From the IMG/VR virus record IMGVR_UViG_2585427746_000005, positions 1 through 50,193 of that record: a stretch of DNA of 50,193 nucleotides; one strand, written 5' to 3'. Shown in pieces: positions 14,034-45,298 of this stretch. Position numbers and translations under genes: made by a program. Positions within the stretch are counted from its first letter, which is position 1; each line of letters begins with the position of its first letter. The stretch comes from a virus (Duplodnaviria > Heunggongvirae > Uroviricota > Caudoviricetes). The notes beneath the pieces were generated by a model. It ran no database searches. It worked only from the letters and a program-made list of their open reading frames with translations, and was not told the origin of the DNA.

Positions 14034-14927
14034 ATGTCCCTTTATAAATACGTTTCAGCCACAACGCTCGAATACATTCTGAACGGTTCAATACGATTCA
14101 CTCAACCCGGAGGATTTAACGACCCATTCGAATTAGCTTTAGAAGTTTACAATCCTACCCTTAATGAAGATGAAAAAGTAAATATACAATTTGATGTTTT
14201 ATCGCAAGATGATTTAATTAATAAATACCTTCTTGATAAGGACTTTCAAGACGACAATTGTAGTGATGTTTTTTCTCGCGAACTTATAAGTAACCTAAAC
14301 AAAGAAATAGGCATACTATGCTTATCTAAAAATTCAGACTCCCATCTAATGTGGGCTCACTATGCCGATGAGTATAGCGGTGCTGTCATAGAGTTTGATG
14401 AAAACCATGAATATTTCTCTGGCTTAACTGAAGTTAAATATGAAAAAGATCGGCCAATTATTCACATGAATTATTTCCTAGAAAATAAAACGATCCCAAT
14501 TTCAAACCTATGCATCAAGCCGGACATTTGGAGTTACGAGAAAGAATTCAGAATAACAAGGTCATTAAGAGACTGTAAAAAAAACAAAGCCAAAACTAAA
14601 AAGTTCGATATTTACACGAACGAAATACCTCTTGATGCCATTAAAACCGTTACACTTGGCGAGCGATGCTCTCTAGAATCTGCTCGCAATACATATCATA
14701 AGCTTAAGAATACCCATGTTGCCTTGAGTATAGCTGCATTAGCAAATTGGAAGTATGAATTCCGTTATGAACCAATAAAATTTAATGAGCCAATCAAAAA
14801 TATGTCCCCGATGATCTCACCACGCACAGCGGAGATTTTTGCAGAAGATAAATCCTCGTTAGGTGAAGTTGCAAGATACATCCTCCAAAAACACCCAATG
14901 AGCAAAATAACTAAATGGCGATTATAA
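14034..14927 (+). CDS. Moron: DUF2971-like protein
   Basis: 297-aa ORF, ATG start; N-terminus LYKYVSATTLEYILNGSIRFTQPGGFNDPFE resembles the DUF2971 signature; AT-rich, opposite strand to the late operons; 3' end overlaps S by 6 nt. Confidence 0.7.
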   Translation: MSLYKYVSATTLEYILNGSIRFTQPGGFNDPFELALEVYNPTLNEDEKVNIQFDVLSQDDLINKYLLDKDFQDDNCSDVFSRELISNLNKEIGILCLSKNSDSHLMWAHYADEYSGAVIEFDENHEYFSGLTEVKYEKDRPIIHMNYFLENKTIPISNLCIKPDIWSYEKEFRITRSLRDCKKNKAKTKKFDIYTNEIPLDAIKTVTLGERCSLESARNTYHKLKNTHVALSIAALANWKYEFRYEPIKFNEPIKNMSPMISPRTAEIFAEDKSSLGEVARYILQKHPMSKITKWRL

Positions 14928-18476: not shown

Positions 18477-19553
18477 TTACTCTCCGGTATCTGGTGCTGG
18501 GGTACTGAAATCACCGTACTCGATGTTTTCAACCAGAGCCGCGCAGCGGTAGTCCTCCACCACAAACGCCTCATTGACCGATTCAAAGTTTTCAATGCGA
18601 TCGCGTTTCGGGTTATCGATGACAGAACGGCGGCGGGTATCTGCCTGCCAGTAAATGGACAGGTTATCCAGACGTGTGATCAGCAGGGCATTTGCCGGGA
18701 AGAACGGCGCGCGGACCGCCTGCAGGCCACCCATGCGTTTCTGGCTGATAATGAGATCGGCAGCCAGCTTTTCACTGTTTTCCTGGTCCTTGTTGACGAG
18801 AGGGAAATACTTATCGGACAGCAGCTCACGACCACAGATCACCACCAGTTCATCATCGTCCTGGTACACCACATCGATCAGTTCGTTGACGGCATCCATC
18901 ACCACGGCGTCCAGATTTTCGTAGCCTTTTTCATCCAGCCCCGACGCGCCTTTACCCACTTTCACAGCGCCTTTAGTGGTTACGCCGTCTTTGGTGGTAC
19001 TGCCCATAACGTGATCCGGTGCATCTTCGCGGATTTTCTGCAGCCAGCCTTTGTTCACATCCTGCAGCAGAGGGTTAGCAGAACGGTCAGAGGTTTTGGC
19101 GCGGCTCACGCCGTTAAAGCCAATCATGATGCGGTCCAGCGCCTGACGCTTGATGATGGCGTTACGCACGCGCACCTGGAAGTCCTGGAATTTCGCCCAC
19201 AGGTCCAGCTTCGCGTAGGTCAGCACCGTGTCATAGTTGGTCTGCTCGCATTTATACTCCACGTCCTCCATCACCATCGGATCGGTAGGCTCACGGTCCT
19301 GTTTGGTGGTGTCGGTGGTTCCGGCAACGGTGCTACCTACGCCCAGCCCCAGCAGTTGTCCAGACTGCTCATCAACCGGCGAGACGTTAATCAACGTCAG
19401 GAATGCAGCGGACTGCTGGATCTCATCCTCTAGCGTCTGCTGTACGGACGGCTCAACGGTGAACTTGCTGGAAAGCTCCTCAACCTCCACACCGTTCAGG
19501 CGGGCCAGCTGCTGCAGGTAGGCATTGAATGCAAATTTAGTTTTCTGTTTCAT
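18477..19553 (-). CDS. Major capsid protein N (P2 gpN-like)
   Basis: 358-aa ORF, ATG start; size and position typical of P2 gpN. Confidence 0.9.
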   Translation of the reverse strand: MKQKTKFAFNAYLQQLARLNGVEVEELSSKFTVEPSVQQTLEDEIQQSAAFLTLINVSPVDEQSGQLLGLGVGSTVAGTTDTTKQDREPTDPMVMEDVEYKCEQTNYDTVLTYAKLDLWAKFQDFQVRVRNAIIKRQALDRIMIGFNGVSRAKTSDRSANPLLQDVNKGWLQKIREDAPDHVMGSTTKDGVTTKGAVKVGKGASGLDEKGYENLDAVVMDAVNELIDVVYQDDDELVVICGRELLSDKYFPLVNKDQENSEKLAADLIISQKRMGGLQAVRAPFFPANALLITRLDNLSIYWQADTRRRSVIDNPKRDRIENFESVNEAFVVEDYRCAALVENIEYGDFSTPAPDTGE

Positions 19554-23391: not shown

Positions 23392-24087
23392 CTAAAACCT
23401 ATCAATTTCCAAACATGAAATGGCATCATTGAAAATTGAAAAATGCTCATCAGGAACCACTGCAGAAGCCCCACTAGTTAATTCAAAACTAATCTTTGAA
23501 TCAAGGTAAAGCCCTCCAGCTTTTATTTTATCGAGCTTGAATTCGCCATCCCCAACAAAACTCTTCAAATCATGCAAAGCATCGCCACTAGAATTCAATT
23601 CCAAACATGCTCTTGTTTTGTCAGTAACAGGAAGATTTGATACCTTCACTTTTGAAATACCAAACACCTTTACGCCAAAATTTTCTCGAACGACCCTCAT
23701 GAAAGCTTTAAGATCAACGGTTAAATTTCCATAAGCAACATTTAATCCTTCAGCCTGAGATAAAAAATCGATGAAAGGTTTAACTGTTTTTGGCGGATTG
23801 TAAAAAGTTAACAGACATATCTTATTGCTGAGGGTTTGGATAGAAAAACTAATCTGATCAAATACAACCCTTTCGAATTCCAGCACCTCACCAAATGGAT
23901 CGGCAACCGGCTCTAAAACAACAGATTTTTTATTGAAAGTTGCAGCAATACCATTATGAATGGTTTCATACTTAGTAAAGCCAGCACCAATAGCATCAGA
24001 ATAAGGCGTGTTTTTGATAAAATCAAAGACAGCCTCAGGGCTGGTTCTGATTTTCAATCTCATCCACTTCAATCTTAATTGTGACAT
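23392..24087 (-). CDS. Cargo operon gene 3, hypothetical protein
   Basis: 231 aa from ATG with AAGGAG SD; AT-rich; no motif recognised. Confidence 0.7.
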   Translation of the reverse strand: MSQLRLKWMRLKIRTSPEAVFDFIKNTPYSDAIGAGFTKYETIHNGIAATFNKKSVVLEPVADPFGEVLEFERVVFDQISFSIQTLSNKICLLTFYNPPKTVKPFIDFLSQAEGLNVAYGNLTVDLKAFMRVVRENFGVKVFGISKVKVSNLPVTDKTRACLELNSSGDALHDLKSFVGDGEFKLDKIKAGGLYLDSKISFELTSGASAVVPDEHFSIFNDAISCLEIDRF

Positions 24088-24106
24088 AGCCACTCCTTAT
24101 GATGTA

Positions 24107-25171
24107 TTAGCTGATTTCCATTATAATAGAATAAGCTCTATTTTCAATTAGTTTATTGAATCGCTCAGCTTCTCTACCAGAGAGTTTTTGCGGCTTACTG
24201 AAATATTGTCCATTTGCCTTATACTTTCTGACTCCCTTAACCAAATATGAAAAATTAGTACAATTAAGAGGATCACCAAATTGGGCCTCAAGCTCAAATA
24301 TATCTGGATCAGCCAAGTTCTCCTTGACCTTCCATTTTATTTTCCAAATATAGAACCCTCTATCATAAAGATCACTTAATTCATCAGATTTAAGCACCCC
24401 CTCCCCCTTAAGTGATGCCCTAGACACGTGCACCCCAGTTTCGGTGTTTCCATCTTCAGCCTCAATAGTTTCAGGCTTAGGGTGATATACATAAGCATCA
24501 GTAACATCCAGTAACTCATAACCATCAAGTGTACGGATTAATCTATCGAAGAATAAAGTTCTAACATCAGCAGATGTATTGTGAGAGAGAGAAATTTCGT
24601 TTAATTTTAAATCAAGGTTACTATCATCCGCTTGCTCGTCCTGAATAGCGCTGATGTGCCCAAGTAAGAGTCCCTCGTAATCTTCAAGGTTTTCATTATC
24701 TGGACGACGGATACTGTAACCATCATCAAGAGGCTCAATTTCAATTAACGCCTCTTTATTAATAGCCTGTTTGAAATCACTTTTACCATAATTAGTTGAA
24801 AGATACCTGATATTAATAAGAACTCGAGGCCCATCTACGATTATTTTACAATAATCATCCTGATCGGTAATTTCTTTCTTAAGTTTTTCTGCGGCATCTA
24901 TAATACCTTTCTTATCTATACCAGTCTCAATTCTTACACATGTAAATTTTTCGGTCCTTGTCTGGCCACCTAAAAGGGTTGCAATTTTTTGATGCTCGTA
25001 ATAATCATGAGTCATTCGAGAATAGTTTCTTGCCAATTCTTTTCGAGGTGTTTTTTTACATATTATTGTCCCCCTCTCTAAGAAAAGATCTTGAATTTCA
25101 TTTAGAGTAATTTGCTTTTGGTTTAAAGCATCATATAAAGCTTTATCAGTTACGCTGTGAATATTTTTCAT
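24107..25171 (-). CDS. Cargo operon gene 2, hypothetical protein
   Basis: 354 aa from ATG (MKNIHSV...) with GGGAG SD; ATGA overlap with gene 1 stop; no motif recognised. Confidence 0.7.
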   Translation of the reverse strand: MKNIHSVTDKALYDALNQKQITLNEIQDLFLERGTIICKKTPRKELARNYSRMTHDYYEHQKIATLLGGQTRTEKFTCVRIETGIDKKGIIDAAEKLKKEITDQDDYCKIIVDGPRVLINIRYLSTNYGKSDFKQAINKEALIEIEPLDDGYSIRRPDNENLEDYEGLLLGHISAIQDEQADDSNLDLKLNEISLSHNTSADVRTLFFDRLIRTLDGYELLDVTDAYVYHPKPETIEAEDGNTETGVHVSRASLKGEGVLKSDELSDLYDRGFYIWKIKWKVKENLADPDIFELEAQFGDPLNCTNFSYLVKGVRKYKANGQYFSKPQKLSGREAERFNKLIENRAYSIIMEIS

Positions 25172-26232
25172 TTCGGCTCCCAAGAAATAACTTCTGCAGA
25201 GAAGAATTCTTTTACTGTAGACACAACTTTAACGTCTAAATCTTCAAGCCTCTTTTTAGCTTCTTCATCTAACCCATACTCATGTGCATATTTTTCAACT
25301 CCACGTTGAAAGTGTGAGAGAATCCTCTCATCTTTTTCTCGATAAGCCAGCCTTATCCTAATTTTATTTATACCATCAAGAATTTGATAATTTGACAAAA
25401 TATCTAACAAATAAAAAAATTCATTGTCGCTATTACCTTTTTTGTTGTAATACACAACAAACCCTTCTGGATAAACCTCCTCCTCTATACCTTTAGCTCT
25501 ATTATATTTATGAACAGCGCCATGTTTGATAATCATGAAAGGTGATGACAAGACTTCTATAGTAGCTGGAAGATATTTTTCAGTCACAGCAACCTTATGA
25601 AAAGTCAATTGAGGGTAATAGAATCCATATTCTTCATCAGGAAACTCTTTCTTAGCAATCAAATCATTCATATCATTCGTAATTGCCAACATATAATTAA
25701 TCAAAAATGGATCGATTATATGAATTTGCTGACCTGAAGATAAAGGAATCTTTTCTAAATTGACAGCCTTATCCCTTCTTCCTTTAGTAGGTTTAGGAGG
25801 ATTAAAAAAATCATAAAAATCATGCTGCAACTGATTATCATGATTAAAAACAAACAACAAACCTCGAACTTCACAGTCGATTTGAGAAAAATTATACTTT
25901 TCTGACCACTCAGGACTATACCGAGCACATTCAATAGTTTTTGCTAATGACTCCAGTGCAGATTCTATTTTTGACGCATTTATTGAACCTGCTTTATAAC
26001 TTTTTAAATCAGTATTTAAATAAATGACCTTGTTTAAATATGGATCTTTATAACTAAAAACAACATCTACAGGATGCGTATGCTTCTGTTTCTTACCTTC
26101 GGGCTTATGTTTAGCCTCATCATCACAAAGGAAATCTCGGTCGCAGGGGCCATGCTGCTGCCACTTAAATCGACTCAGTAGATCCTCAGATATGCGTTTT
26201 GCCAAATCTTCAATAGGGCCGTTCTCTGCCAT
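25168..26232 (-). CDS. Cargo operon gene 1, hypothetical protein (possible PD-(D/E)xK-like motif)
   Basis: 354-aa ORF, ATG with AAGGAA SD; HPVDVVF...IYLNTDLKSYK could be a D...(D/E)xK nuclease core but this is unverified. Confidence 0.7.
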   Translation of the reverse strand: MAENGPIEDLAKRISEDLLSRFKWQQHGPCDRDFLCDDEAKHKPEGKKQKHTHPVDVVFSYKDPYLNKVIYLNTDLKSYKAGSINASKIESALESLAKTIECARYSPEWSEKYNFSQIDCEVRGLLFVFNHDNQLQHDFYDFFNPPKPTKGRRDKAVNLEKIPLSSGQQIHIIDPFLINYMLAITNDMNDLIAKKEFPDEEYGFYYPQLTFHKVAVTEKYLPATIEVLSSPFMIIKHGAVHKYNRAKGIEEEVYPEGFVVYYNKKGNSDNEFFYLLDILSNYQILDGINKIRIRLAYREKDERILSHFQRGVEKYAHEYGLDEEAKKRLEDLDVKVVSTVKEFFSAEVISWEPK

Positions 26233-33940: not shown

Positions 33941-34969
33941 ATGACCATCAGAAAGCAGCCAAACGGAAAATGGTTGTGTGAATGCTACCCGAACGGGCGA
34001 GACGGCAAGCGTGTGCGCAAACAATTTGCGACGAAAGGCGAGGCCATAGCATTCGAAAACTTCACCATGGATGAAGTAAACAAAAAGCCATGGCTTGGTG
34101 AGAAGGAAGATCGTCGGCGCTTGTCAGAAGTAATTGAGCAATGGCACTCACTCTACGGGCAGACGCTTGCAGATCCCAAACGCCTGATGGCGAAACTTAA
34201 AATTATCTGTAATGGTCTGGGCGATCCCATCGCTTCAGAGCTGACCGCCGGTGACTTTACGAAATACCGCGAAGCACGGTTAAAAGGTGAGGTGCGAAAT
34301 GAAGATGGCGCGCTTATGTCACCAGTTAAGCCTCGCACGGTAAACCTTGAACAACGCAACCTATCATCCGTGTTTGGCACACTGAAAAAGTTGGGCCACT
34401 GGTCAGCACCCAACCCACTCGCCGGTTTGCCAACATTTAAAATCGCAGAAGGTGAACTGGCGTTCCTGACACCGGAAGAAATTAAACGCCTGCTGGATGC
34501 CTGCGCTGATTCTCAAAGCCCCAGCCTGCTGATGATTGCAAAAATATGCCTGGCAACTGGTGCACGCTGGAGTGAAGCCGAAAATCTGCAGGGCCATCAG
34601 TTATCGAAATACCGGATCACCTATACCAAGACTAAGGGCAAGAAAAACCGTACCGTGCCGATATCTCAGGATCTGTATGATGAACTTCCCAAGAACAGAG
34701 GGAAGTTATTCACCCCGTGCAGAAAAGCTTTTGAGCGTGCAGTAAAACGGGCAGGTATTGAGCTGCCTGAAGGCCAATGCACTCACGTGCTGCGTCATAC
34801 GTTCGCCAGTTATTTTATGATGAATGGCGGAAACATACTGGTATTAAGAGATATTCTGGGCCATGCCGATATAAAAATGACGATGATTTATGCACATTTT
34901 GCACCTGATCATCTAGAGGATGCAGTAACAAAAAACCCTTTACATGGATTAAAATGGACCTCACCATGA
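33941..34969 (+). CDS. int: Tyrosine integrase (P2/186 Int-like)
   Basis: 342 aa with C-terminal ...HVLRHTFASYFMMNGG...LGHADIKMTMIYAHF (R..H..Y catalytic signature). Confidence 0.9.
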   Translation: MTIRKQPNGKWLCECYPNGRDGKRVRKQFATKGEAIAFENFTMDEVNKKPWLGEKEDRRRLSEVIEQWHSLYGQTLADPKRLMAKLKIICNGLGDPIASELTAGDFTKYREARLKGEVRNEDGALMSPVKPRTVNLEQRNLSSVFGTLKKLGHWSAPNPLAGLPTFKIAEGELAFLTPEEIKRLLDACADSQSPSLLMIAKICLATGARWSEAENLQGHQLSKYRITYTKTKGKKNRTVPISQDLYDELPKNRGKLFTPCRKAFERAVKRAGIELPEGQCTHVLRHTFASYFMMNGGNILVLRDILGHADIKMTMIYAHFAPDHLEDAVTKNPLHGLKWTSP

Positions 34970-35985
34970 TTCTAGAATTAATAACTAGCAATATAAAAAA
35001 ACCAGAAATCTCTATCTTATTAATAGCTCTGTATTTAATTTACTTATTTATAGAATATACAAAAAATAAAAATAACAGTTATTTTGAAATGACTGAGGAA
35101 AGACTAACAAAACAAAAACTATTCAAACAATCAATAAGAATACCTGTTATTTCATCTTTATATTTTGGTGTCTTCGCATGGGTGGGACACTCCCCTCAAT
35201 TTGATGCTACAGGATTTAAAAACTTCATTGAAATAAGCAAGTTGCCTATTGCTCTTCTGTCTCTTTCGATACCATTTGTAGCCATAGTTGCTAACATTCA
35301 CAGAACAATACAAACCGAGAATCAAATTAGAAAAACACAACAACAGATAGATTTAGTAACCGAGAAAAACCGCAGTGATGCTTACTACGCTCACCTAAAA
35401 AATTATTCTGATATATTTAAAACACTGCCATCATTTACCCTCTCTCGCCGTGACAATACAACCTTTGAAAAAGGTACTGTTAAATTATCTGTGGATCATA
35501 CATATTCATTATATAAAAAAATATTCACAAAATCCTCAATCTCTGCTGGATATAACAGCGAGGTTGATAAAAAATTCCTTAGACAACTAGAAAACATATA
35601 CACTAGCATCGGGAATGCAATAATAAGAAACAATGAAATTTACCCAAGTCAAGTGAGCATATCTAATTTAGAGAACATTGAAGCGCTAGTGGTATTTTTG
35701 TGTAGAGAACTAGGTGTCAATTATGAACGAGAAGTTAACAAATTCGATATATTTGACCCAATTTCAAATTTAGGAATAGAAACATCATTTTCAGATGAAA
35801 AAGAGATCAAAGAAATGCTACGAGGCTTAAGGGACATATTGATATCTCTTTACATGCTAATTGATCAAAATACAATTATTTTTCAAGGCAATGCCAATAG
35901 CGGCGATTTTTTAGCTAATTATGCTTACGACCCAGATAATTTGATTTTTAAAGATATCTTACCTATAGATTCTCAAGGTAAATAA
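34954..35985 (+). CDS. Cargo: predicted multi-pass membrane protein, function unknown
   Basis: 343-aa AT-rich ORF with three hydrophobic segments near the N-terminus; sits between int and attR. Confidence 0.65.
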   Translation: MDLTMILELITSNIKKPEISILLIALYLIYLFIEYTKNKNNSYFEMTEERLTKQKLFKQSIRIPVISSLYFGVFAWVGHSPQFDATGFKNFIEISKLPIALLSLSIPFVAIVANIHRTIQTENQIRKTQQQIDLVTEKNRSDAYYAHLKNYSDIFKTLPSFTLSRRDNTTFEKGTVKLSVDHTYSLYKKIFTKSSISAGYNSEVDKKFLRQLENIYTSIGNAIIRNNEIYPSQVSISNLENIEALVVFLCRELGVNYEREVNKFDIFDPISNLGIETSFSDEKEIKEMLRGLRDILISLYMLIDQNTIIFQGNANSGDFLANYAYDPDNLIFKDILPIDSQGK

Positions 35986-36099: not shown

Positions 36100-36144
36100 A
36101 TGTAGGAATTTCGGACGCGGGTTCAACTCCCGCCAGCTCCACCA
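36100..36144. repeat. attR: displaced 45-bp copy of the ssrA 3' end
   Basis: Identical to 1016-1060; followed by a second integrase gene. Confidence 0.85.
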
Positions 36145-36180
36145 ATTTTTGATATATTGAAGTTCAGTGAAGTCTATCAA

Positions 36181-36212
36181 GCCCGCATGGAACCAGCCTT
36201 GCGGGCTTTTTT
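36181..36212 (+). terminator. Rho-independent terminator downstream of the displaced ssrA 3' end
   Basis: GCCCGCA ... TGCGGGC stem followed by TTTTTT. Confidence 0.55.
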
Positions 36213-36310
36213 ACGTCTATAGTAGTCTACCGAGAATTGCTAGAATCTACTCGTTATGGCACCCTTTTTGGGACCCAACACAAAGGGTCCAAAACATGAG
36301 GGTCCCAAAC

Positions 36311-37540
36311 ATGGCAAAAATCGCTAAGAAGCTCACTGACACTGAAATCAAAAGCACCAAACCTGCCGAGAAAGAGGTTAACCTTTTTGACGGCGATGGT
36401 TTGCTCCTGCGAATCGCCCCCTTAGCGAAGGGAGGAAAGAAAAATTGGTATTTCAGATATGCAGTGCCTGTGACCAAAAAGCGAACTAAGGTGAGCTTAG
36501 GAACCTATCCTCACCTTACACTTGCGAAGGCACGAGCTTTACGTGATGAGTACTTGTCGTTGCTTGCAAATGGTATAGACCCACAAGTTCATAACACCCA
36601 CAAAGCCAATGCCCTTAAGGATGCAACGGAACATACATTTCAAGCAGTAGCCAAGAAGTGGCTTGATGAGAAAGTCAAAACGTCAGGCATCTCCCAGGAT
36701 CATGCTAACGACATCTGGCGAAGCCTAGAGAGAAATATCTTTCCAACGTTGGGTGATACCCCCATTAAGGAGATTCGCCCTAAAATGCTTAAACAGCATT
36801 TAGACCCCATAGAAAAACGAGGTGTCCTTGAAACACTTCGCCGCGTCATATCCCGCCTGAATGAAATTTTCCGCTATGCAGCAACAGAAGAACTCATAGA
36901 ATTCAATCCGGCTGACAACCTGGGGCAACGGTTCAGCAAGCCAAAAAAACAGAATATGCCAGCATTACCCCCTTCCGAACTCCCCCGCTTCCTGGTTGCT
37001 CTAAACAATGCTTCTATCCGTTTAGAAACAAGGCTACTGATTGAGTGGCAACTTCTCACATGGGTTCGCCCTGGTGAAGCTGTTCGCACAAGATGGTCAG
37101 ATATTGATATAGAAACCAGCATGTGGAACATCCCGGCGGAGTTTATGAAAATGAAGAAGCCTCACAAAGTTCCACTGAGCAAAGAATCTTTGCGAGTCTT
37201 GGATTCAATGAAAGCCATCAGCGGGCATAGAGAGTGGGTTTTTCCCAGTATCAAAGCTCCACTCAATCACATGCATGAACAAACAGCTAATGCGGCTATA
37301 ATCCGTATGGGCTTCGGAGGTGAGCTTGTAGCTCATGGTATGCGATCAATCGCTAGAACGGCGGCTGAGGAGTGTGGCAAGTTTAGAACTGATGTCTTAG
37401 AAGCCGCCCTTGCCCACTCGAAAAAAGATGAAATAATTGCAGCCTACAATCGTGCAGAGTATCTCACAGAACGTGTGGTTCTCATGCAATGGTGGAGTGA
37501 CTATGTTTCGTCTCAAAAATACAAAGTTATTGCCGCATAA
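36311..37540 (+). CDS. P4-type tyrosine integrase (IntA-like)
   Basis: Start moved to ATG MAKIAKKLTDTEIKSTKP...; N-terminal arm-binding-like segment and C-terminal catalytic domain. Confidence 0.9.
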   Translation: MAKIAKKLTDTEIKSTKPAEKEVNLFDGDGLLLRIAPLAKGGKKNWYFRYAVPVTKKRTKVSLGTYPHLTLAKARALRDEYLSLLANGIDPQVHNTHKANALKDATEHTFQAVAKKWLDEKVKTSGISQDHANDIWRSLERNIFPTLGDTPIKEIRPKMLKQHLDPIEKRGVLETLRRVISRLNEIFRYAATEELIEFNPADNLGQRFSKPKKQNMPALPPSELPRFLVALNNASIRLETRLLIEWQLLTWVRPGEAVRTRWSDIDIETSMWNIPAEFMKMKKPHKVPLSKESLRVLDSMKAISGHREWVFPSIKAPLNHMHEQTANAAIIRMGFGGELVAHGMRSIARTAAEECGKFRTDVLEAALAHSKKDEIIAAYNRAEYLTERVVLMQWWSDYVSSQKYKVIAA

Positions 37541-37822
37541 CTCTTCCATGATGGGTTAACTATCTTGATTTATTTGAAGAATTAATGATCACACCATTAA
37601 CCTATGTGGACTAAGCATAGCCATTTACAAATGGGTACCTTGAGGCCACATAACGAAAGCTGTCGGTCATATCAGCTAAATAATTCACATCTCTTCTCGA
37701 TTATCATACACCTCGAAGAACTACCAAATTCGCTCTAATCAATGATAAAACAGTTGAATTCGGTTAAAATTTGATCAATTTTATCCTCTACATTGTATTG
37801 AATCATCCATGAGGTTTTGTGC

Positions 37823-39379
37823 ATGGCTAGCGGAAATGAAAAAAATCATAGAGTTAGGGTCGCACAGTACTTGAGGATGTCTACCGACCATCAGCAATAT
37901 TCTTTACATAATCAGTCTGAATATATCAAAGATTATGCTGAAAAGAACAATATGGAAATCGCTTATACCTACGATGATGCAGGTAAGAGCGGAGTCAGTA
38001 TCGTAGGCAGGCATTCTTTGCAGCAGTTACTTAGCGATGTAGAACAAAAGAAAATAGATATACAGGCTGTATTATTTTATGATGTGAGCCGTTTTGGTCG
38101 TTTTCAAAATAGTGATGAAGCTGCATATTATTCCTTTCTATTTGAAAGAAATGGTGTAGATCTTATATATTGTTCCGAACCTATACCCACTAAAGATTTC
38201 CCTTTAGAGTCCTCTGTTATACTGAATATAAAAAGATCAAGTGCTGCATATCACAGCAGGAATCTATCTGAAAAGGTATTTATAGGGCAAGTAAATTTAA
38301 TAAAGCTTGGTTATCATCAAGGCGGTATGGCTGGTTATGGGCTGAGACGTCTTTTAGTAGACGAAAATGGCATAGCTAAAGAAATATTGAATTTCCGCAA
38401 AAGAAAGAGTATTCAAACAGATAGGGTAATATTAATTCCGGGACCAAAAAATGAAATAAAAATTGTAAATAGAATCTATGATCTCTTTATAGATAGTAAC
38501 GTCCCAGAATTCATTATTGCTGAGAGATTAAATGAACAGAGCATACCTGCAGAAAATGGAACATCATGGACTCGTGCAAAAATACATCAAATTTTGACAA
38601 ATGAAAAATATATTGGAAACAACATATATAACAAAACCTCATCTAAACTAAAAAGTAAGCTTGTAAAAAACCCCAAACATGAATGGATTAGATGTGACAA
38701 GGCATATAAACCAATTATTTCAAAGAAAAAATATAATAAAGCTCAAGAAATAATTCAGCTCCGATCCATTCATTTGACTAATGAAGATCTATTAGAAAAG
38801 CTAAAAGAAAAATTAGAATCTAATGGAAAACTATCAGGCTTTATCATTGATGAAGATGATACAGGCCCTTCATCTTCTGTTTATAGAACCCGATTTGGTG
38901 GTCTTTTAAGAGCATATACTTTGATTGGTTATAAGCCAGAACATGATTACAGCTATCTCCAAATAAATGAAGCACTAAGATCATTTTACTCAGAGATAAT
39001 TGAGGATTTTAAGGGCGAAATATTAAAAAGTAACTGTCATATAGACGAGTATAAATATTACCCAATGCTTTACATCAATGATGAGTTTTTAATTTCCGTC
39101 CTTGTTACTAAATGCATACATATGAAATCAGGTAAACTTAGATGGAAAGTCCGGTTTGATAACTCACAGAAAGCAGACATAACAATTGTTATACGAATGA
39201 ATTCACAAAATATTTCACCTCTTGATTTTTATATCATACCAAAGATTGAAAACGAATATAGTAAAATGTGTATGATGGAAACAAACAACATTCGGTTAGA
39301 TCTCTATAGATTTGATAATCTTGATAAATTTCTACAAATTATTACTCGCATGAAAGTGAGGGAACTATATGCTGCCTGA
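37823..39379 (+). CDS. Large serine recombinase (resolvase-domain N-terminus)
   Basis: YLRMSTDHQ...GKSGVS...LLFYDVSRFGR resolvase motifs with a long C-terminal extension; ATG with GAGG SD. Confidence 0.85.
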   Translation: MASGNEKNHRVRVAQYLRMSTDHQQYSLHNQSEYIKDYAEKNNMEIAYTYDDAGKSGVSIVGRHSLQQLLSDVEQKKIDIQAVLFYDVSRFGRFQNSDEAAYYSFLFERNGVDLIYCSEPIPTKDFPLESSVILNIKRSSAAYHSRNLSEKVFIGQVNLIKLGYHQGGMAGYGLRRLLVDENGIAKEILNFRKRKSIQTDRVILIPGPKNEIKIVNRIYDLFIDSNVPEFIIAERLNEQSIPAENGTSWTRAKIHQILTNEKYIGNNIYNKTSSKLKSKLVKNPKHEWIRCDKAYKPIISKKKYNKAQEIIQLRSIHLTNEDLLEKLKEKLESNGKLSGFIIDEDDTGPSSSVYRTRFGGLLRAYTLIGYKPEHDYSYLQINEALRSFYSEIIEDFKGEILKSNCHIDEYKYYPMLYINDEFLISVLVTKCIHMKSGKLRWKVRFDNSQKADITIVIRMNSQNISPLDFYIIPKIENEYSKMCMMETNNIRLDLYRFDNLDKFLQIITRMKVRELYAA

Positions 39380-40265
39380 AAAAAATGAATTCCCAATAAT
39401 TCAAATTGAGATTGCAAAAATAAAATTTCTTAACCCACGAACAAGAAATAAGGTAGTGCATGAAGAAATAAAGGAAAGCATAAAAAAAAGAGGATTAAGC
39501 AAGCCTATAAGCGTAAGAGCTATTGATGAAGACGATTTCAAATATGCTTTAATTTGTGGTCAAGGGAGAATAGAGGCTCTTGTTGCATTAGGTGAAACTA
39601 TTATTCCAGCAATTATAAGAGATGTATCAGAAGAAGATGCTTACGTTATGAGTTTAGTTGAAAACATTGCAAGGAGAAGACCACGTTCTAATGAGTTATT
39701 ACAGGTGATTAAAGACATGAAAATCAGAGGACTTTCAGACTCCGAAATAAGTGAGATTACTGGATATTCATCGAACTGGGTGAGCAGTATTAATATGCTT
39801 CTTGATAAGGGAGAGCATAAACTTCTCTCAGCAGTCGAACGGGGTAATTTGCCTCTGTATCTCGCAGTGCAATTTGCAAGATGTGAAACTGAGGAAGCAC
39901 AAGATATTCTTACCGAAGCATATGATAAAAAATTAATAAAAAGTCGGGACATTATAAAGATAAAATACATTCTAAATCAAAGAACAGTTGGGAATAAAGG
40001 TGCAAAAGCAGCCGGATTTTATTATCACAAACCATCAAAAAGGATGACTGCAGAGGAGTTGATTGAGCTTTATGAAAATAGTATCGCTGAACATAAATCT
40101 GTTTATAACAACTCGAAATTTATAAAAACCAATCTACTAATAATAAATGAGATTTTTAACATCATAATGATGAATAAAAGCTTTCAAAATATACTTGAAC
40201 AAGAGAATCTTTCAGAACTACCATCTCAGATATTAAACCCAGTAAACAAAGAGGTATCAAAATGA
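39369..40265 (+). CDS. ParB/Srx-fold N-terminal domain protein
   Basis: ICGQGRIEAL resembles the ParB GxxR box; 11-nt overlap with the recombinase gene. Confidence 0.65.
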   Translation: MLPEKNEFPIIQIEIAKIKFLNPRTRNKVVHEEIKESIKKRGLSKPISVRAIDEDDFKYALICGQGRIEALVALGETIIPAIIRDVSEEDAYVMSLVENIARRRPRSNELLQVIKDMKIRGLSDSEISEITGYSSNWVSSINMLLDKGEHKLLSAVERGNLPLYLAVQFARCETEEAQDILTEAYDKKLIKSRDIIKIKYILNQRTVGNKGAKAAGFYYHKPSKRMTAEELIELYENSIAEHKSVYNNSKFIKTNLLIINEIFNIIMMNKSFQNILEQENLSELPSQILNPVNKEVSK

Positions 40266-41158
40266 TTCAGATACGTTTTGGCAAAAATTTTATTTACCTG
40301 GAAACTAATAAGTTAATTCCATCTAAGGAATTATTAGAAAACGTAAAGCGAAGCCATAAATATCATCAAATAGTTACCTCTATCGAAAGCTTGGGTATTA
40401 TTGAACCAATAATAGTATTCTATGACAAAGATAAAGATGTCACTAAGATACTTGATGGCCATTTAAGGGTTGAGGCTTTAAAAGACTTAGATATAGAAAA
40501 AGCTCCATGTATACTTTCGAGCATAGATGATGCTTTCACTCCTAACAAACAAGTGAATCATATAAATGTAGTTGAAGAACATAGAATGATAATTAAGTCT
40601 CTGGCAAAAGTATCAATTGAAAAACTTAGTGCTGCTTTGGGCATATCTGTTGATGCCATAAAAGATAAAGCTAATGTGATGAACGGCATAGATCCAAGTG
40701 TAATTGCGAAACTTTCTGATAAACCTATACCTAAGGCTACATTTGACGTTTTGAGGAAAATGAAGCCAATTCGTCAAATTGAAGCAGTCGGTACAATGAT
40801 TAATTTTGATAATTATAGTAAAAAATTTGCAATGAGCATCTTGGATGCAACACCGTCATCGATGATAGTAAATAAAGGGAAAAACACTCCCTATAAAAAG
40901 GACATAAAAAAAACCATACTTCGTCTGGAACAAGAAATGGCAACAACTTCGGAAGAAACGAAAAAACTTCAAACCGAGTATGGTTCAGATATGTTGAAAT
41001 TCGTTATAATCCAGTCATATATTAATAAATTACTTGGCAACTCTAAAGTTCTTCATTGGTTCTTAGAAAACGAGGTTGATTATCTTAATGAGTTAAAAAG
41101 AATTTCTAGAATAAATTCTTTGGATGATAAGACTCTTACTGAAAACAGCCAGTCATAG
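40262..41158 (+). CDS. ParB-like nuclease domain protein
   Basis: KILDGHLRVEALKDL matches the DGHHR-type ParB-like nuclease motif; ATGA overlap with the preceding gene. Confidence 0.65.
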   Translation: MIQIRFGKNFIYLETNKLIPSKELLENVKRSHKYHQIVTSIESLGIIEPIIVFYDKDKDVTKILDGHLRVEALKDLDIEKAPCILSSIDDAFTPNKQVNHINVVEEHRMIIKSLAKVSIEKLSAALGISVDAIKDKANVMNGIDPSVIAKLSDKPIPKATFDVLRKMKPIRQIEAVGTMINFDNYSKKFAMSILDATPSSMIVNKGKNTPYKKDIKKTILRLEQEMATTSEETKKLQTEYGSDMLKFVIIQSYINKLLGNSKVLHWFLENEVDYLNELKRISRINSLDDKTLTENSQS

Positions 41159-41811
41159 TCATGGTTTTATATAGCCTAAATAAACCAAGAAGTATACTTA
41201 CACAACGACCTTCACGCCGAAGAAGCTGTCAGATACGCCAGCAACCAAAGCATTGCGTTTAAGAGTCAGTCATTGATACGAAGGGATAACTGCGTATCAG
41301 CAGCCGGACATTGAGTCGAATAAAGGCTGGTAGAGAGGGACAGTTCTGTGTCACCGGGAGATTAGTCAGAAACATCAGCGGCAGAACAGATGAACCAGCA
41401 ATTGGTAGTGTACAGAAAACTCTCCAGTATATAATTATTCAACTTAACACTAAAAAAAATCACATAGTTAATATCATAATTTTTCTTTGGTCTACTTATG
41501 CGAGAGATATTGTGGCTTCAACCTGGTATTAGGAGTCGTTTCAGATAAAAGATGTTCTTCGATTCGACTGGACTTGGTAATAGCAATAAGTAATCGTGAA
41601 TATTGAAGGACGAAAGGCTACTTCAAAACAAAGTAACCTTTCCAATATTCCCATATATGGGACAAGTGGCACATTAACTGCACATAGTGCAGGATACATA
41701 TGACATAAAACTTTTTATTTATGGCATACATTAAAAATAACTTTTATTTTACGAATGTCAATAGGCTCTTGCTTAATACTTTTAAAATAATTAATTGATT
41801 TTTTATTATAG

Positions 41812-41831
41812 CTTCGCTTGTACAAGCGAAG
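41812..41831. repeat. Perfect 20-bp palindrome
   Basis: CTTCGCTTGTACAAGCGAAG equals its reverse complement; in the 1-kb non-coding gap between convergent operons. Confidence 0.6.
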
Positions 41832-42162
41832 ATCCTATTGTTCTTGAATGAATAATGCCAATTATAAAAGAAGCAAGGGCTAACCCTACGAAGCCGCTGC
41901 GCTTGTTTCTTTGGGTTCCCCTTGCTTTTCTTCCCTTCGGTTAGAAAAGAAAATCCAGCCCAGTTTATCAACTATCTACAGTATTCCCACTAAAGAGTAA
42001 CCGCCACTTTATACTCCGTTTGTGAGCTGAGGCTACTGTAGCATTTTTGGGTTTAAATTTTCTATCATTACCAGTTGTTGTGTCGGGATAAAAATATTTT
42101 CTCGCATCCAACCATAAAGATAGCAGATTTGCTATCATCATCACTTCACATAATGAAACTTT

Positions 42163-42210: not shown

Positions 42211-43116
42211 TTATTTAGATGCTAAAATAGTATTTTTATTGAATTTTTCATCAGCATCTGTAAGCTTTTTCATTATTAAAGCAGGGGCTATATCCTGAAG
42301 CTCCGTAGATTTTATGAAAAAATAATTACAAAGGTAAATTATATTATTAAGATTAATTGGTATATCAATATTATAATCTAACATTAACGATAACAAACGA
42401 TCTCTGTCAATTCTATAAAACTTTTTACCAAGCTCTTTCTCATTAATTATTGAAATTATCTTTTCATCAAGCTTATCGTCCATTCTCAATCTTAATTTAT
42501 TTCTTAGCATAGCGGACCATGCGCTTGACTTATAATTTCTATATGCTAAATCCTCAAATAACTTCATTATTCCCCAATCAGATGTTTCCAAAGAGGCGTA
42601 AATTCCATTCAGCGCGCGACTAAGGTCATTATGCTCAACCCAATCCTCTTTGCACTTATAGCGTAGATCATGCTCAACTTCATGCCATCCTTCAGATAAA
42701 ATAGTTCTAAATTGGACTTCAAAAGTAGTATCAATATAAGAATATTTCTTTAATAAGACACTATCATTTGATAATACTTCTGGTAACTTAAAGACGTAAT
42801 TGCATCGAGTTGCCGCAAAGAGATTAGCCGTGGTTTCGTCTACGGTTTTAGATTCAATTTCGAATAATTTCTCCAGTGTTTTTTGAGCAATAAATAAATC
42901 ATCAGGAAAATATAATATTATCCTAACCCCAAATAAGTCTTGAATTTTTTTACCATCCTCTGAGTATTTATTAGGCTCTTTTTCATATTTCTTAATTATT
43001 GAGCTTTCTGATTTTGTCCTCGAAAAAAAACGATAAAGTAATCCAATACGATTAAGTTCATCTTCTATATCTTTTTGCAAACTTTGAATAATTCGCAATT
43101 CATTCCCGTTATACAT
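42211..43116 (-). CDS. RelA/SpoT-domain nucleotidyltransferase (small alarmone synthetase / toxSAS-like)
   Basis: DLFGVRIILYF and FEVQFRTILSEGWHEVEHDLRYK match the synthetase-domain motifs; start overlaps the upstream stop (TGATG). Confidence 0.8.
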   Translation of the reverse strand: MYNGNELRIIQSLQKDIEDELNRIGLLYRFFSRTKSESSIIKKYEKEPNKYSEDGKKIQDLFGVRIILYFPDDLFIAQKTLEKLFEIESKTVDETTANLFAATRCNYVFKLPEVLSNDSVLLKKYSYIDTTFEVQFRTILSEGWHEVEHDLRYKCKEDWVEHNDLSRALNGIYASLETSDWGIMKLFEDLAYRNYKSSAWSAMLRNKLRLRMDDKLDEKIISIINEKELGKKFYRIDRDRLLSLMLDYNIDIPINLNNIIYLCNYFFIKSTELQDIAPALIMKKLTDADEKFNKNTILASK

Positions 43117-45221
43117 CAGAAATTCCTCCCAAGAATTGCTTTAATCTCTGATATTCTTGCCATGTTAAGTTCAAGGAACGAACGCTTGTCTGGCGTAAGT
43201 AAAAGACCGTCTTTCCTCAATTTATCTAAAGAATGGAGTATTTCACTTAACTGAAATTGATTGTTGTTAGAACATAAGCCTTTTATAGGCCGATGCTTAT
43301 GATAGCTAACACTCCCTCTGGGACAGAACTTCTCTAAGATGTAAATATCACAATCTGTAATATCGTGATCATTTTCACTGTTTATCTCGACAGATTTTTT
43401 ATTAATAGCATCATTGTCACATTCACATCCCAAAAAATAAATATCTTCCCTACCACTTAATTCGTTAAAACTACAATCTATAAAAGAACAGTTCACGAAT
43501 GTAACGTTTTTATAATTACCACAGGTAAATATGCTGCTAAAAAACGAACAATCAACAAAGATAGTATCATGTATTATATTTATATCGCCTAAAGAAAGTT
43601 TTGATATAGACAATTGCTCAACACTATCATTTTTTAAATCTAATGGAACTTTTCCTATAAGCAAATGACTATAAAGGATTTTATCATTACCTGACATAAA
43701 ATATAAAGCAAACTCTAAGCTATGCCAAAGTAATTCTTTTTCATCATCGATCCTCGGCATATAAGATTGCACTGCTGGTTCTATAAAACGTTTATCACCA
43801 ATCCATTCATTTGACTTATCATTAATAATATTTTCAGAAACAAAATTACCAAGAACAAATTCATTAACAAATCCAATACCTTGGTTTTCTGAGCCTGACC
43901 GATCTAATAGAGCATGCGATGCTAATTTATTAACTAATTCGTCAGTAGTTGGTCTTTCATCTACAGTATAAAGCTTTCTTGTAGCCTCCAAGAGTTGTTG
44001 ATTCTTTTCAGTTATGACTAACGATATATACTCTCTAGACTCAGATGTGTAGTTACCCTCGACCATGTCGTCAGCTATTATTTTTAGTATAGTATATTGA
44101 TCTTCAATAGACATTAATAAATCTTGTCTTTTTCTTTCTCGCTCAAGCATTGAATCAAAATACTTCCTCACTATAGTTGTTGGGTCGCTTATAACTTTAT
44201 TAAAGTCGGTGTCGTCGATGCATCTTAGAAATGATAGCAGTACAGGGTTTGATAATTTGTTAAGAGGAAATCCTGTCGATGAAATTTCATCTAAACGTTG
44301 ACCTGGAAGCCAGTCTTCAATTTGTGGTTCATGAATTCTTATTCTTATCACATCAAAATCTTCTTGATGTGATGCTATCCACTGATGGAATTCATCTCCG
44401 TCAAATATAGCTGTTCTTCGAGTTGTCAAAACCACTTTTGCACTATCAGTTAGAAGCTCACTTATTGTTTCCAGCATTGGCTCTGTTTTTTCATAATTAT
44501 TTTCAATTCCGTTTGTACTTTCATGCAATAGTTCATCAAACCCGTCAAGTATAACTGGTACATTTCCTGCTCTTATTTCATTCCTTACTAAGGCTGAGCT
44601 TAACAAAGGAAAACTTCTATCAATTTCATCTAATAGTACATACCTGAATATTTTTGCTTGCCTATTCCTTGATAGTTCTGAAAATAATGGTATTTTCCCT
44701 ATATTGTTAACTATAATCTCCCTCAATAATTCATACGCCGTGCAAGTCTTTCCAAAACCGGCTGCAGCCTCAATCAAAAACAGAATTGGACGCCTATGTT
44801 GTATTCTCTCTAATATTTCCGTAACAACATTAGCTTCGCCAATAACACCATTTAAGTAATATTTTGAATTTATGTAGGAATAAGTTGCAGTAGGTGAGTG
44901 AATTTTTACAATTGAATCTGTGAAAGTATTATAATCTTTAATCAACCTTTCTTTAGTTGAATCGACGCTAAAGAAGCCATTAAATAATTCCTTATGTGCT
45001 TCTTCATAAGACTGATATTTTTTAATTTGACATGCATAACCTAACTGCCTATATTCTTCAAAGGTTTGATTTACATTAACCTCATTATTTAGTGGAAGTA
45101 TGTCCGCGTTATGGTAGTGCCCTGTTTTAATAGAATATACAGCAATACTTTCGTTACCTGTATTTTCTTCAGTAAAACCAAACCTTTTATATATCTCTGT
45201 AAGTTTGCTTTTTCGTAACAT
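43116..45221 (-). CDS. NACHT/STAND-like P-loop NTPase with C-terminal pentapeptide repeats
   Basis: Walker A AAAGFGKT, NACHT-type Walker B VILDGFDEL, C-terminal FVDCSFFSSIFTCGNYKNVTFVNCSFIDCSF repeats; start moved to ATG with AGGAGG SD. Confidence 0.8.
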   Translation of the reverse strand: MLRKSKLTEIYKRFGFTEENTGNESIAVYSIKTGHYHNADILPLNNEVNVNQTFEEYRQLGYACQIKKYQSYEEAHKELFNGFFSVDSTKERLIKDYNTFTDSIVKIHSPTATYSYINSKYYLNGVIGEANVVTEILERIQHRRPILFLIEAAAGFGKTCTAYELLREIIVNNIGKIPLFSELSRNRQAKIFRYVLLDEIDRSFPLLSSALVRNEIRAGNVPVILDGFDELLHESTNGIENNYEKTEPMLETISELLTDSAKVVLTTRRTAIFDGDEFHQWIASHQEDFDVIRIRIHEPQIEDWLPGQRLDEISSTGFPLNKLSNPVLLSFLRCIDDTDFNKVISDPTTIVRKYFDSMLERERKRQDLLMSIEDQYTILKIIADDMVEGNYTSESREYISLVITEKNQQLLEATRKLYTVDERPTTDELVNKLASHALLDRSGSENQGIGFVNEFVLGNFVSENIINDKSNEWIGDKRFIEPAVQSYMPRIDDEKELLWHSLEFALYFMSGNDKILYSHLLIGKVPLDLKNDSVEQLSISKLSLGDINIIHDTIFVDCSFFSSIFTCGNYKNVTFVNCSFIDCSFNELSGREDIYFLGCECDNDAINKKSVEINSENDHDITDCDIYILEKFCPRGSVSYHKHRPIKGLCSNNNQFQLSEILHSLDKLRKDGLLLTPDKRSFLELNMARISEIKAILGRNF

Positions 45222-45298
45222 TAAACTCACCTCCTGATATTTTTCGCAATGATGCTATAGTCGCTGTATGAACTTTTAATATAATATTACAAAAACCA

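Follow-up and report, generated by a model that had tools for sequence, protein, structure and literature searches.

The DNA stretch under study, IMG/VR record IMGVR_UViG_2585427746_000005 (50,193 nt; its full length is referred to here as the window), is filed under Caudoviricetes and corresponds to a segment of an Escherichia coli chromosome that begins with smpB followed by ssrA (698-1060). Our subject is a trio of genes in this window that encode a large serine recombinase (Rec) and two ParB-like proteins (PbA and PbB), and that hold the first cargo position of an ssrA island, behind a P4-type tyrosine integrase (Table 1). An earlier interpretation made from the letters alone (the sequence-only reading) had described three overlapping genes, each preceded by a Shine-Dalgarno (SD) motif, in an AT-rich block right behind a tyrosine integrase. 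Open reading frame (ORF) coordinates and GAGG-like motifs bear out this organization: all three genes lie on the + strand, with overlaps of 11 nt between Rec and PbA and of 4 nt between PbA and PbB, and SD-like GAGG, GAGGGA, or AGAGG motifs are found 7 to 12 nt 5′ of each ATG. The GC content of the block is 32 to 33%, compared with 50 to 58% for the chromosome and for the prophage that the window also contains, and the Rec ATG starts 282 nt past the stop codon of the tyrosine integrase. Comparison with the 94.7%-identical CH468 lineage yielded ratios of nonsynonymous to synonymous substitution rates (dN/dS) of 0.06 to 0.17 for all three genes, with no internal stops, indicating purifying selection on each of them within E. 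coli.

The leader between the integrase and Rec lacks a small regulator gene, unlike that of most relatives outside Enterobacteriaceae. Integrases of ssrA islands with 78 to 84% identity align with the window only to position ~37507, whereas alignment with the ≥94% class extends through 37816. On the other side, the noncoding tail downstream of PbB showed neither Rfam matches nor excess RNA folding energy when both strands were checked.

Table 1. Coordinates of the trio, of its adjoining features, and of one example of the downstream RNA
Feature	Position	Strand	Remarks
Rec	37823..39379	+	518 aa; ATG start; in-frame TTG at 37817 is an alternative start
PbA	39369..40265	+	298 aa; ParB-type, with N-terminal CTPase-fold domain, helix-turn-helix (HTH) region, and C-terminal region
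PbB	40262..41158	+	298 aa; second, diverged ParB/Srx-fold protein
Leader, presumed operon promoter	37541..37822	+	Intergenic; kept with the trio in enterobacterial islands
Noncoding tail	41159..41957	.	Accompanies the trio in most E. coli, Salmonella, and insertion sequence-interrupted Klebsiella islands; variable cargo begins beyond
ssrA 3′-end repeat and P4-type tyrosine integrase	36100..37540	+	Repeat at 36100-36144; integrase from ATG at 36312 to 37540
RNA example	L082:9379-9511		3′ of PbB

Rec combines a serine recombinase core with a predicted endonuclease-like fold

Rec matches the Pfam families Resolvase (PF00239; 78.4 bits) and Recombinase (PF07508; 78.4 bits, residues 212 to 314), and its residues ~315 to 518 lie beyond both, in agreement with the large serine recombinase with a long C-terminal extension that had been proposed. 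Residues R18, S20, D87, R90, and R93 are invariant across 42 diverse relatives; Rec is thus, as judged from its sequence, a catalytically competent serine recombinase. It scored only 64 and 42 bits against the NCBIfam CcrB and CcrC models, respectively, for which the cut-off is 900. An AlphaFold2 model of Rec (pLDDT confidence score of 87) was matched by Foldseek to serine integrase structures (9dxd, 9iu2, and 4bqq; Bxb1 and phiC31) over ~330 residues only, which correspond to the catalytic and recombinase domains.

No Pfam match, zinc-binding Cys cluster, zinc ribbon, or coiled coil was found in residues ~315 to 518. Instead, the last ~200 residues are modeled as a helical linker followed by a domain with a restriction endonuclease/Hjc-like fold, which matches PD-(D/E)xK nucleases and displays the αβββαβ core typical of restriction endonuclease-like folds. 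In this predicted domain, conservation extends to P451-D452 and D468 and, almost without exception, to R458, whereas the lysine expected at the x-K position is absent; the domain may therefore be inactive or have a variant site. Compared with the large serine recombinases (phiC31, Bxb1, A118, and TP901-1; CcrA/B; TnpX), Rec has the catalytic serine, the Arg/Asp residues, the αE helix, and PF07508 in common, i.e., two of the three defining features, but lacks the zinc ribbon with coiled coil, ends in an endonuclease fold, and is always encoded with two ParB-like proteins. In phage serine integrases, the zinc ribbon with its embedded coiled coil reads the att sites and sets the direction of the reaction. 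With an endonuclease-fold, presumably DNA-binding domain in its place, a DNA recognition or control function would be missing from Rec and could be provided in trans.

Some Rec homologues reach ~755 to 775 aa (P0174, P0244, P0202, P0223, and P0232), and two of them, P0174 and P0244, carry RepB-domain C-terminal tails. These two could be natural fusions of Rec with a ParB-like protein or products of a frameshift at the 4-nt gene overlap. We set the fusion aside given the weak pairwise comparison of P0174 and P0244, while a frameshift at the overlap could still explain both.

PbA and PbB are diverged ParB-fold proteins

Assignment of the other two genes to ParB/Srx-type proteins, originally based on a GxxR box and a DGHLR motif, was corroborated by profile searches, conservation of the motifs, and alignment to ParB-type structures. 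PbA matches ParB_N (PF02195; 50.9 bits, cut-off 26.3) and RepB (31.2 bits) in Pfam and passes the TIGR00180 model of the ParB/RepB/Spo0J domain with 61.7 bits, above its cut-off. PbB matches RepB with 85.8 bits over its middle and C-terminal parts and falls just below the cut-off for ParB_N (24.2 bits). At the structural level, residues 8 to 212 of PbA align to the N-terminal domain plus HTH of Spo0J, ParB, Noc, and KorB structures, and PbB aligns to Noc (7ol9; E value, 7e-6). The pair therefore has in common with the ParB/Noc/KorB CTP clamps an N-terminal ParB fold followed by an HTH. The two proteins are only distantly alike, with ~30% identity over just 63 residues.

Both retain the ParB nucleoside triphosphate (NTP)-box positions and the HTH region, albeit with altered boxes. 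PbA has GQGR in place of GERR, as well as ENxARR, and PbB has the DGHLR box, which is kept in 70 relatives; the alignment columns of GQGR and DGHLR rank with the best conserved of the respective families. A nuclease-based system had been considered, and DGHLR had been described as a nuclease-like motif. This box is rather the ParB/Srx NTP-binding box, from which no nuclease can be deduced, and what survives of the suggestion is the endonuclease-fold domain, which resides in Rec. PbA and PbB are probably nucleotide-switched HTH proteins.

More specific models did not fit. PbA reached 37 bits with the RepB equivalog model TIGR03454 (cut-off 201.5) and 21 bits with PRK13866 (cut-off 522), neither of which matched PbB, and all NCBIfam equivalogs considered (RepB, Noc, and PRTRC ParB) were far under cut-off for both proteins, so that assignment holds at the level of the generic domain. 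Orphan ParB-fold proteins are enriched on mobile elements and some of them bind ATP or GTP rather than CTP (10.1101/2025.10.10.680097); recombinases go unmentioned in that study.

The trio is inherited as a unit in at least five phyla

An exhaustive, profile-free search for Rec relatives returned no fewer than 1351 clusters at 50% identity (E ≤ 1e-30); full-length relatives with 32 to 46% identity make up at least 150 of these. Scanning one genome per species gave more than 591 confirmed matches, and we examined the best 80 loci among them (L031-L110). These are distributed over alpha-, beta-, and gammaproteobacteria, Acidobacteriota, Planctomycetota, Myxococcota, and Bdellovibrionota, i.e., at least five phyla. 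Except at contig ends or upon evident deletion, Rec, PbA, and PbB follow each other in this order and on the same strand, and the plurality of loci (30 of ~68) exhibits a 4-nt overlap between the Rec stop and the PbA start.

The genomic contexts are unrelated, and in this respect the trio behaves as an autonomous module. On Agrobacterium pAtC58 it lies between AbiEii and Fic genes, and on a Piscinibacter plasmid (L029) it comes directly after TniA/TniB/TniQ of a Tni-type transposon; in Tn5053-type elements this position after TniQ is occupied by the resolvase. A 30-kb Paraburkholderia plasmid carries the trio amid Abi, toxin-antitoxin, and restriction-modification genes, along with its own Rep, Xer-like recombinase, and ParA, the last with a small partner protein. 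Clustering of the flanking ORFs of the 80 loci unveiled small upstream regulators as the sole conserved neighbors: a divergent HTH protein of ~125 aa (~36 loci), a zinc-ribbon protein (11 loci), and a winged-helix protein (4 loci), with none in E. coli. The nearest large neighbors are highly diverse (106 Pfam families among 134 proteins), with recurrence of Fic, DUF499, HipA, Shedu SduA, methyltransferases, type I/ISP restriction enzymes, AbiE, WYL, and TniQ. A Fic/DOC gene (Fic_N plus Fic, ~390 aa) adjoins the trio on either side in 6 to 7 of the 80 loci (L028, L081, L089, L101, and L103 are among the Fic-adjacent loci), being the commonest neighbor other than the regulators.

Close relatives share blocks of ~3.9 to 4.2 kb that start either with the first codon of Rec or at the distal boundary of the regulator gene and stop 0 to 215 bp past PbB, so that homology breaks just outside the module on both sides. 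Collectively, these patterns identify the trio as an ancient, self-contained module that is exchanged horizontally. Among 50,697 phage records, a PbA homologue was present in one metagenomic fragment only. The matches in IMG/VR are near-identical copies of the E. coli type on contigs of 10 to 50 kb, which we suspect to reflect neighboring prophages. No description of the trio and no role assigned to it were found in the full-text literature searched.

Position of the trio in enterobacterial ssrA islands

The trio occurs in 657 of 5426 complete E. coli genomes (~12%), always on the chromosome and normally as one copy each. In strains ML35 and REL606, which are free of the prophage, the order is ssrA, integrase, and trio; the three genes are intact in REL606 and in BL21(DE3). 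Copies with 95 to 97% protein identity were found in Klebsiella, Salmonella, Enterobacter, Citrobacter, and Cronobacter. All the enterobacterial loci inspected consist of ssrA, a P4-type integrase, and the trio, followed by variable defense-type cargo, and the Klebsiella and Salmonella loci fetched show integrase and then trio in the smpB/ssrA neighborhood. The locus corresponds to the E. coli tmRNA hotspot #9 of PMC10121019.

Cargo past the trio includes Mrr plus McrA-like nucleases, a UvrA-like ABC protein with two ThiF proteins, HNH_5/DUF5677/DUF6602, or TIGR04141 plus HxsABCD, and it begins 51 to 800 bp past PbB in E. coli and relatives. In window coordinates, homology after PbB ends at 41209 in the CH468 lineage, in which the tail is thus not linked to the trio, at 41306 in Klebsiella (at an insertion sequence [IS]), at 41502 in REL606 (at IS1), at ~41957 to 41964 in Salmonella, and at ~41951 in most E. 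coli. The constancy of integrase and trio, together with the differences in cargo and homology ends, points to the trio as the conserved, integrase-proximal part of a family of ssrA defense islands. That the trio might be a conserved core of this island family with an assigned role had been named as an outcome contrary to the sequence-only reading; the first half is what we observe, whereas for the second no assigned role appeared in the literature searched. The P4-type tyrosine integrase accounts for integration at ssrA, so the earlier view that the serine recombinase stands apart from this reaction is upheld.

In CH468 (L003), the trio lies between two different 3′ remnants of P4-type integrases (14299-14826 and 18575-18818), the second of which is 81% identical to window positions 37316-37559. 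This arrangement suggests recombination between tandem islands, not movement of the trio. A plasmid origin of the trio was considered and rejected: no near-identical trio DNA was found on plasmids, and the distant plasmid protein matches represent the conserved trio itself.

A structured RNA lies 3′ of PbB in many alphaproteobacterial loci

In 38 of the 80 loci, every one of them alphaproteobacterial, a ~108-nt element in the same orientation as PbB is located 10 to 90 nt past its stop codon, and the conservation of this element exceeds that of the trio genes (Table 1). RNAalifold predicted five helices. In the seed alignment, 97.8% of the cells pair, compared with 27 to 41% after sliding of the partners; compensatory changes occur in nine pairs, and none of 500 shuffles reached any of the observed measures. 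A metagenome scan by sequence motif alone recovered a further set of 80 loci (L115-L194); of the 75 copies with sufficient sequence on their 5′ side, 69 are preceded, on the same strand and within 150 nt, by the end of a PbB ORF, and a few orphan copies adjoin unrelated genes. With 96 distinct sequences, the pairs with compensatory changes rose to 12, and one pair is G-C in 45 sequences and G-U in 37. The frequency of G-U pairs places the structure on the sense strand, i.e., in the transcript.

When 4227 Rfam covariance models were run on nine loci, only tRNAs reached the gathering score, and at E ≤ 10 the element itself gave two chance-level matches, both outside its core. A tRNA or tmRNA identity was rejected, since ARAGORN and Rfam were both empty there. 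By comparative criteria, the element is a new structured RNA class strictly tied to a protein gene, and it is probably a further component or regulator of alphaproteobacterial trios. RNA-bearing trios are scattered over several deep clades of the Rec tree. Two copies were seen in one locus out of ~98 (L038, 13340-13448 and 18374-18481), and arrays of cassettes bounded by the element were discarded as an explanation on this account.

The covariance model did not detect the RNA in E. coli, beta- and gammaproteobacterial, acidobacterial, or planctomycete loci, and nonalphaproteobacterial loci have no shared sequence downstream of the trio. Within the 37.4- to 42.4-kb interval of the window, the best match (41272-41350; 5 bits, E value of 1.9) is not significant. 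Together with the lack of excess folding energy, this led us to reject an E. coli equivalent.

Comparison with known systems

The nearest described arrangement, which we liken by description, is a module (DsiB/DsiA) of the Dehalococcoides ssrA island, where the operon of a ~540-aa serine recombinase also encodes a ParB-domain protein (PMC3146451). That module comprises six genes, including a second, small serine recombinase, a RecF-like protein, Mom, and a single ParB-domain protein of 210 aa, and its serine recombinase abuts attL and is the proposed ssrA integrase (PMC3146451). In the window, the attL-side position is instead held by the tyrosine integrase. Relative to ParABS, the trio is without ParA, no parS was found, the boxes are changed (GQGR and DGHLR), and two paralogues are always paired.

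The Tn3/γδ res-resolvase, Tn5053 TniR, and RK2 parCBA systems resemble the trio in placing a serine recombinase next to transposition genes (as in L029) or in a small operon whose accessory proteins stabilize the element. Their resolvases are proteins of ~200 aa with a C-terminal HTH that act at defined res sites, and the ParB of RK2 is an unrelated nuclease; at the trio, nothing like a res site was found. Recombinase-marked defense islands are also alike by description, in that a conserved gene set containing a recombinase sits beside highly variable defense cargo. The recombinases concerned are small serine recombinases, reported as markers of defense loci (PMC13552941), and Gamma-Mobile-Trio elements have a different three-protein set (bioRxiv 10.1101/2023.03.28.534373). 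A text search of these two sources found no mention of ParB.

The trio as a putative recombination module

Tentatively, and with slightly less than even confidence, we read the trio as a self-contained module for site-specific recombination, whose ParB-like pair selects and controls the DNA substrate of Rec for the carrier element; it would be, as part of the same reading, neither the island integrase nor a ParABS-type partition system. In such a module, translational coupling would deliver PbA and PbB in fixed stoichiometry, and both proteins would act as a hetero-complex that recognizes or marks one or more DNA sites and licenses Rec synapsis and its direction. Elsewhere, this licensing is performed by accessory sites or recombination directionality factors. 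The reaction would serve the carrier element by either resolving or excising DNA, or by rearranging or exchanging the adjacent defense cargo, and the sense-strand RNA just past PbB would take part in many alphaproteobacterial versions. The gene content, domain layout, catalytic residues, linkage of the three genes, and changing context, as well as the structure and linkage of the RNA, are observations, whereas we infer the PbA/PbB-Rec complex, its substrate, the reaction direction, and the biological payoff.

The argument starts from Rec itself, which has no domain for site reading and direction and is constantly coexpressed with two ParB-fold binders, so that PbA and PbB may gate its substrate. 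Position points the same way: the trio comes right after the integrase in enterobacterial ssrA islands and right after TniQ in the Tni-type transposon, where a resolvase would be expected from Tn5053, and homology breakpoints cluster just outside the module. Strict coinheritance of the three genes, the invariant Rec active site, purifying selection, and the preserved NTP-box positions and HTH region of PbA and PbB are likewise consistent with a working module. There is also a precedent for a serine recombinase with a ParB-domain protein in the Dehalococcoides module (PMC3146451).

Several results weigh against this interpretation. No recombination site, parS-like site, or flanking repeat was found, the flanking-repeat search over 35.9 to 46.5 kb giving short, chance-level matches, and none of the E. 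coli loci inspected showed an inversion or excision product. The RNA or a site was not seen in arrays either, two copies being present in 1 of ~98 loci. The Paraburkholderia plasmid has a Xer-like recombinase and ParA, so a housekeeping role in resolution or partition is not required there. The single PbA homologue among 50,697 phage records indicates that the trio is not a generic integration module, and this near absence also excludes a phage integration module as its identity. Finally, the neighbors are mostly defense or toxin-antitoxin genes, which would fit a defense function equally well.

Such a function is the main rival, although we hold it to be unlikely: the trio would be an antiphage or antiplasmid defense or exclusion system in which the ParB-like pair senses or loads onto invading DNA and Rec breaks or scrambles it, by serine recombinase cleavage, by its endonuclease-fold domain, or by both. 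The module is compact, self-regulated, and horizontally spread, has Fic, HipA, AbiE, Shedu, restriction-modification, DUF499, and Abi genes around it, and heads the defense cargo of the tmRNA hotspot (#9, PMC10121019); its constant place on the integrase side of downstream cargo that varies nevertheless looks like backbone, not cargo. The PD-(D/E)xK-fold domain of Rec would suit an effector, but the canonical lysine of the nuclease motif is missing. PADLOC 2.0 gives no match for Rec and PbA and only a 24-bit ParB_N match to a methyltransferase model for PbB, while small serine recombinases have been reported as markers of defense loci (PMC13552941). The near absence from phage genomes and the dispensability of the trio for partition and resolution on the 30-kb Paraburkholderia plasmid would also agree with defense. 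We know of no defense mechanism with a serine recombinase effector, which weighs against this alternative.

Quite improbable in our view is an autonomous mobile element of ~4 kb, made up of regulator, trio, and 3′ element, in which Rec would be the transposase or integrase and insert the module into other mobile elements. The module is indeed found on plasmids, in a Tni-type transposon, in islands, and on chromosomes with unrelated flanks, otherwise unrelated loci share the ~3.9- to 4.2-kb homology blocks, and many occurrences are on short separate contigs. Flanking blocks are permuted between L101 and L103, and orphan 3′ elements adjoin unrelated genes. Terminal repeats, target duplications, and end points that recur between loci are lacking, however: left ends are spread between +20 and about −700, one regulator replaces another at the start codon of Rec, and an alignment of eight relatives showed no crisp left end. 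None of 14 whole-contig loci is circular, as judged by terminal overlap, and the enterobacterial loci inspected are all at one site behind one integrase, usually with one copy per genome. The earlier idea of a nested element, in the sense of a transposon, was not sustained for similar reasons, with no flanking inverted or direct repeats in E. coli and no crisp ends in pairwise comparisons.

Least likely of all is that the trio serves maintenance or silencing, with PbA and PbB as clamps of the KorB kind that would repress the island, compact it, or tether the circle formed on its excision, and with Rec confined to resolving multimers. In favor of this reading, PbA does align to the clamps KorB, Noc, and ParB, mobile elements commonly carry orphan proteins of RepB type with a ParB fold (10.1101/2025.10.10.680097), and the island is AT-rich and, by its relaxase, mobilizable. 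Against it, ParA and parS-like repeats were not found, a plasmid that carries the trio has its own partition and resolution genes, and a silencer would not be expected to come strictly coupled to a recombinase so large and unusual. No ParA was found beside the trio in the window, in six enterobacterial loci, and in three annotated plasmid loci, nor did such a conserved cluster occur in the 80 loci, and positions 37541 to 41400 contain only two short perfect palindromes, unremarkable for AT-rich DNA. Along with the separate ParA system of the trio-bearing plasmid, the lack of ParA makes the partition module that had also been suggested unlikely.

Coming back to the trio as a recombination module, we regard it as a variation on known kinds of system, in which a serine recombinase is accompanied by ParB-fold accessory proteins. 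With a modest probability, it belongs to a new category altogether, as a clamp- and/or RNA-guided recombinase or a new defense mechanism. A more specific version, which is rather unlikely as a whole, is a new recombination machine built of a serine recombinase stripped of its site-reading domain that is targeted and gated by a heterodimeric, nucleotide-switched ParB-like clamp, with RNA too in many lineages, and used for moving or exchanging defense cargo or as a defense effector. Two well-studied families, serine integrases and ParB CTP-switch clamps, are here joined in an obligatory pairing with no prior analysis in the literature searched. How Rec finds and orients its sites without a zinc-ribbon/coiled-coil domain could widen the toolkit of programmable integrases, and study of the trio could help explain how defense islands assemble next to recombinases. 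Its intact state in BL21 and REL606 makes the trio directly testable.

Other features of the window

A P2-family prophage (1061-36100; P2 capsid, GPA, sheath, and terminase) separates ssrA from the older island, having inserted into the 3′ end of ssrA; copies of this end, which form a 45-bp direct repeat at 1018-1060 and 36100-36144, bound the prophage. An AT-rich block of three genes in this prophage (23392-26232, − strand) matches PADLOC Hp3/Hp2/Hp1 with E values of 2e-9 to 2e-66 and no Pfam domain in any of the products; we take it to be the "3HP" defense system of P2 hotspots. Another AT-rich ORF (14034-14927, + strand; GC of ~36%) lies amid the prophage tail genes and encodes a DUF2971 protein that matches the PADLOC candidate PDC-S31 (E value, 2e-39). 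A 343-aa ORF with 31% GC between the prophage integrase and the att repeat (34954-35985, + strand) gave no Pfam, NCBIfam, or PADLOC match and is probably prophage cargo.

Downstream of the trio, a MobA/VirD2 relaxase gene at the window end runs off the window, and its presence in the ssrA island implies that the latter is an integrative mobilizable element. The cargo between 45946 and 50193 comprises a DUF4928 fragment, two small ORFs without family, an ankyrin-repeat protein with a weak PDC-M72A match, and a 135-aa ORF. Closer to the trio (42211-45230, − strand), a RelA/SpoT-domain gene overlaps a gene for a NACHT NTPase, which begins with an NA-iREase2 domain and ends in pentapeptide repeats. 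This pair, for which PADLOC gave weak matches only, looks like a STAND-type defense pair; in ML35, the NACHT gene is interrupted by IS3.

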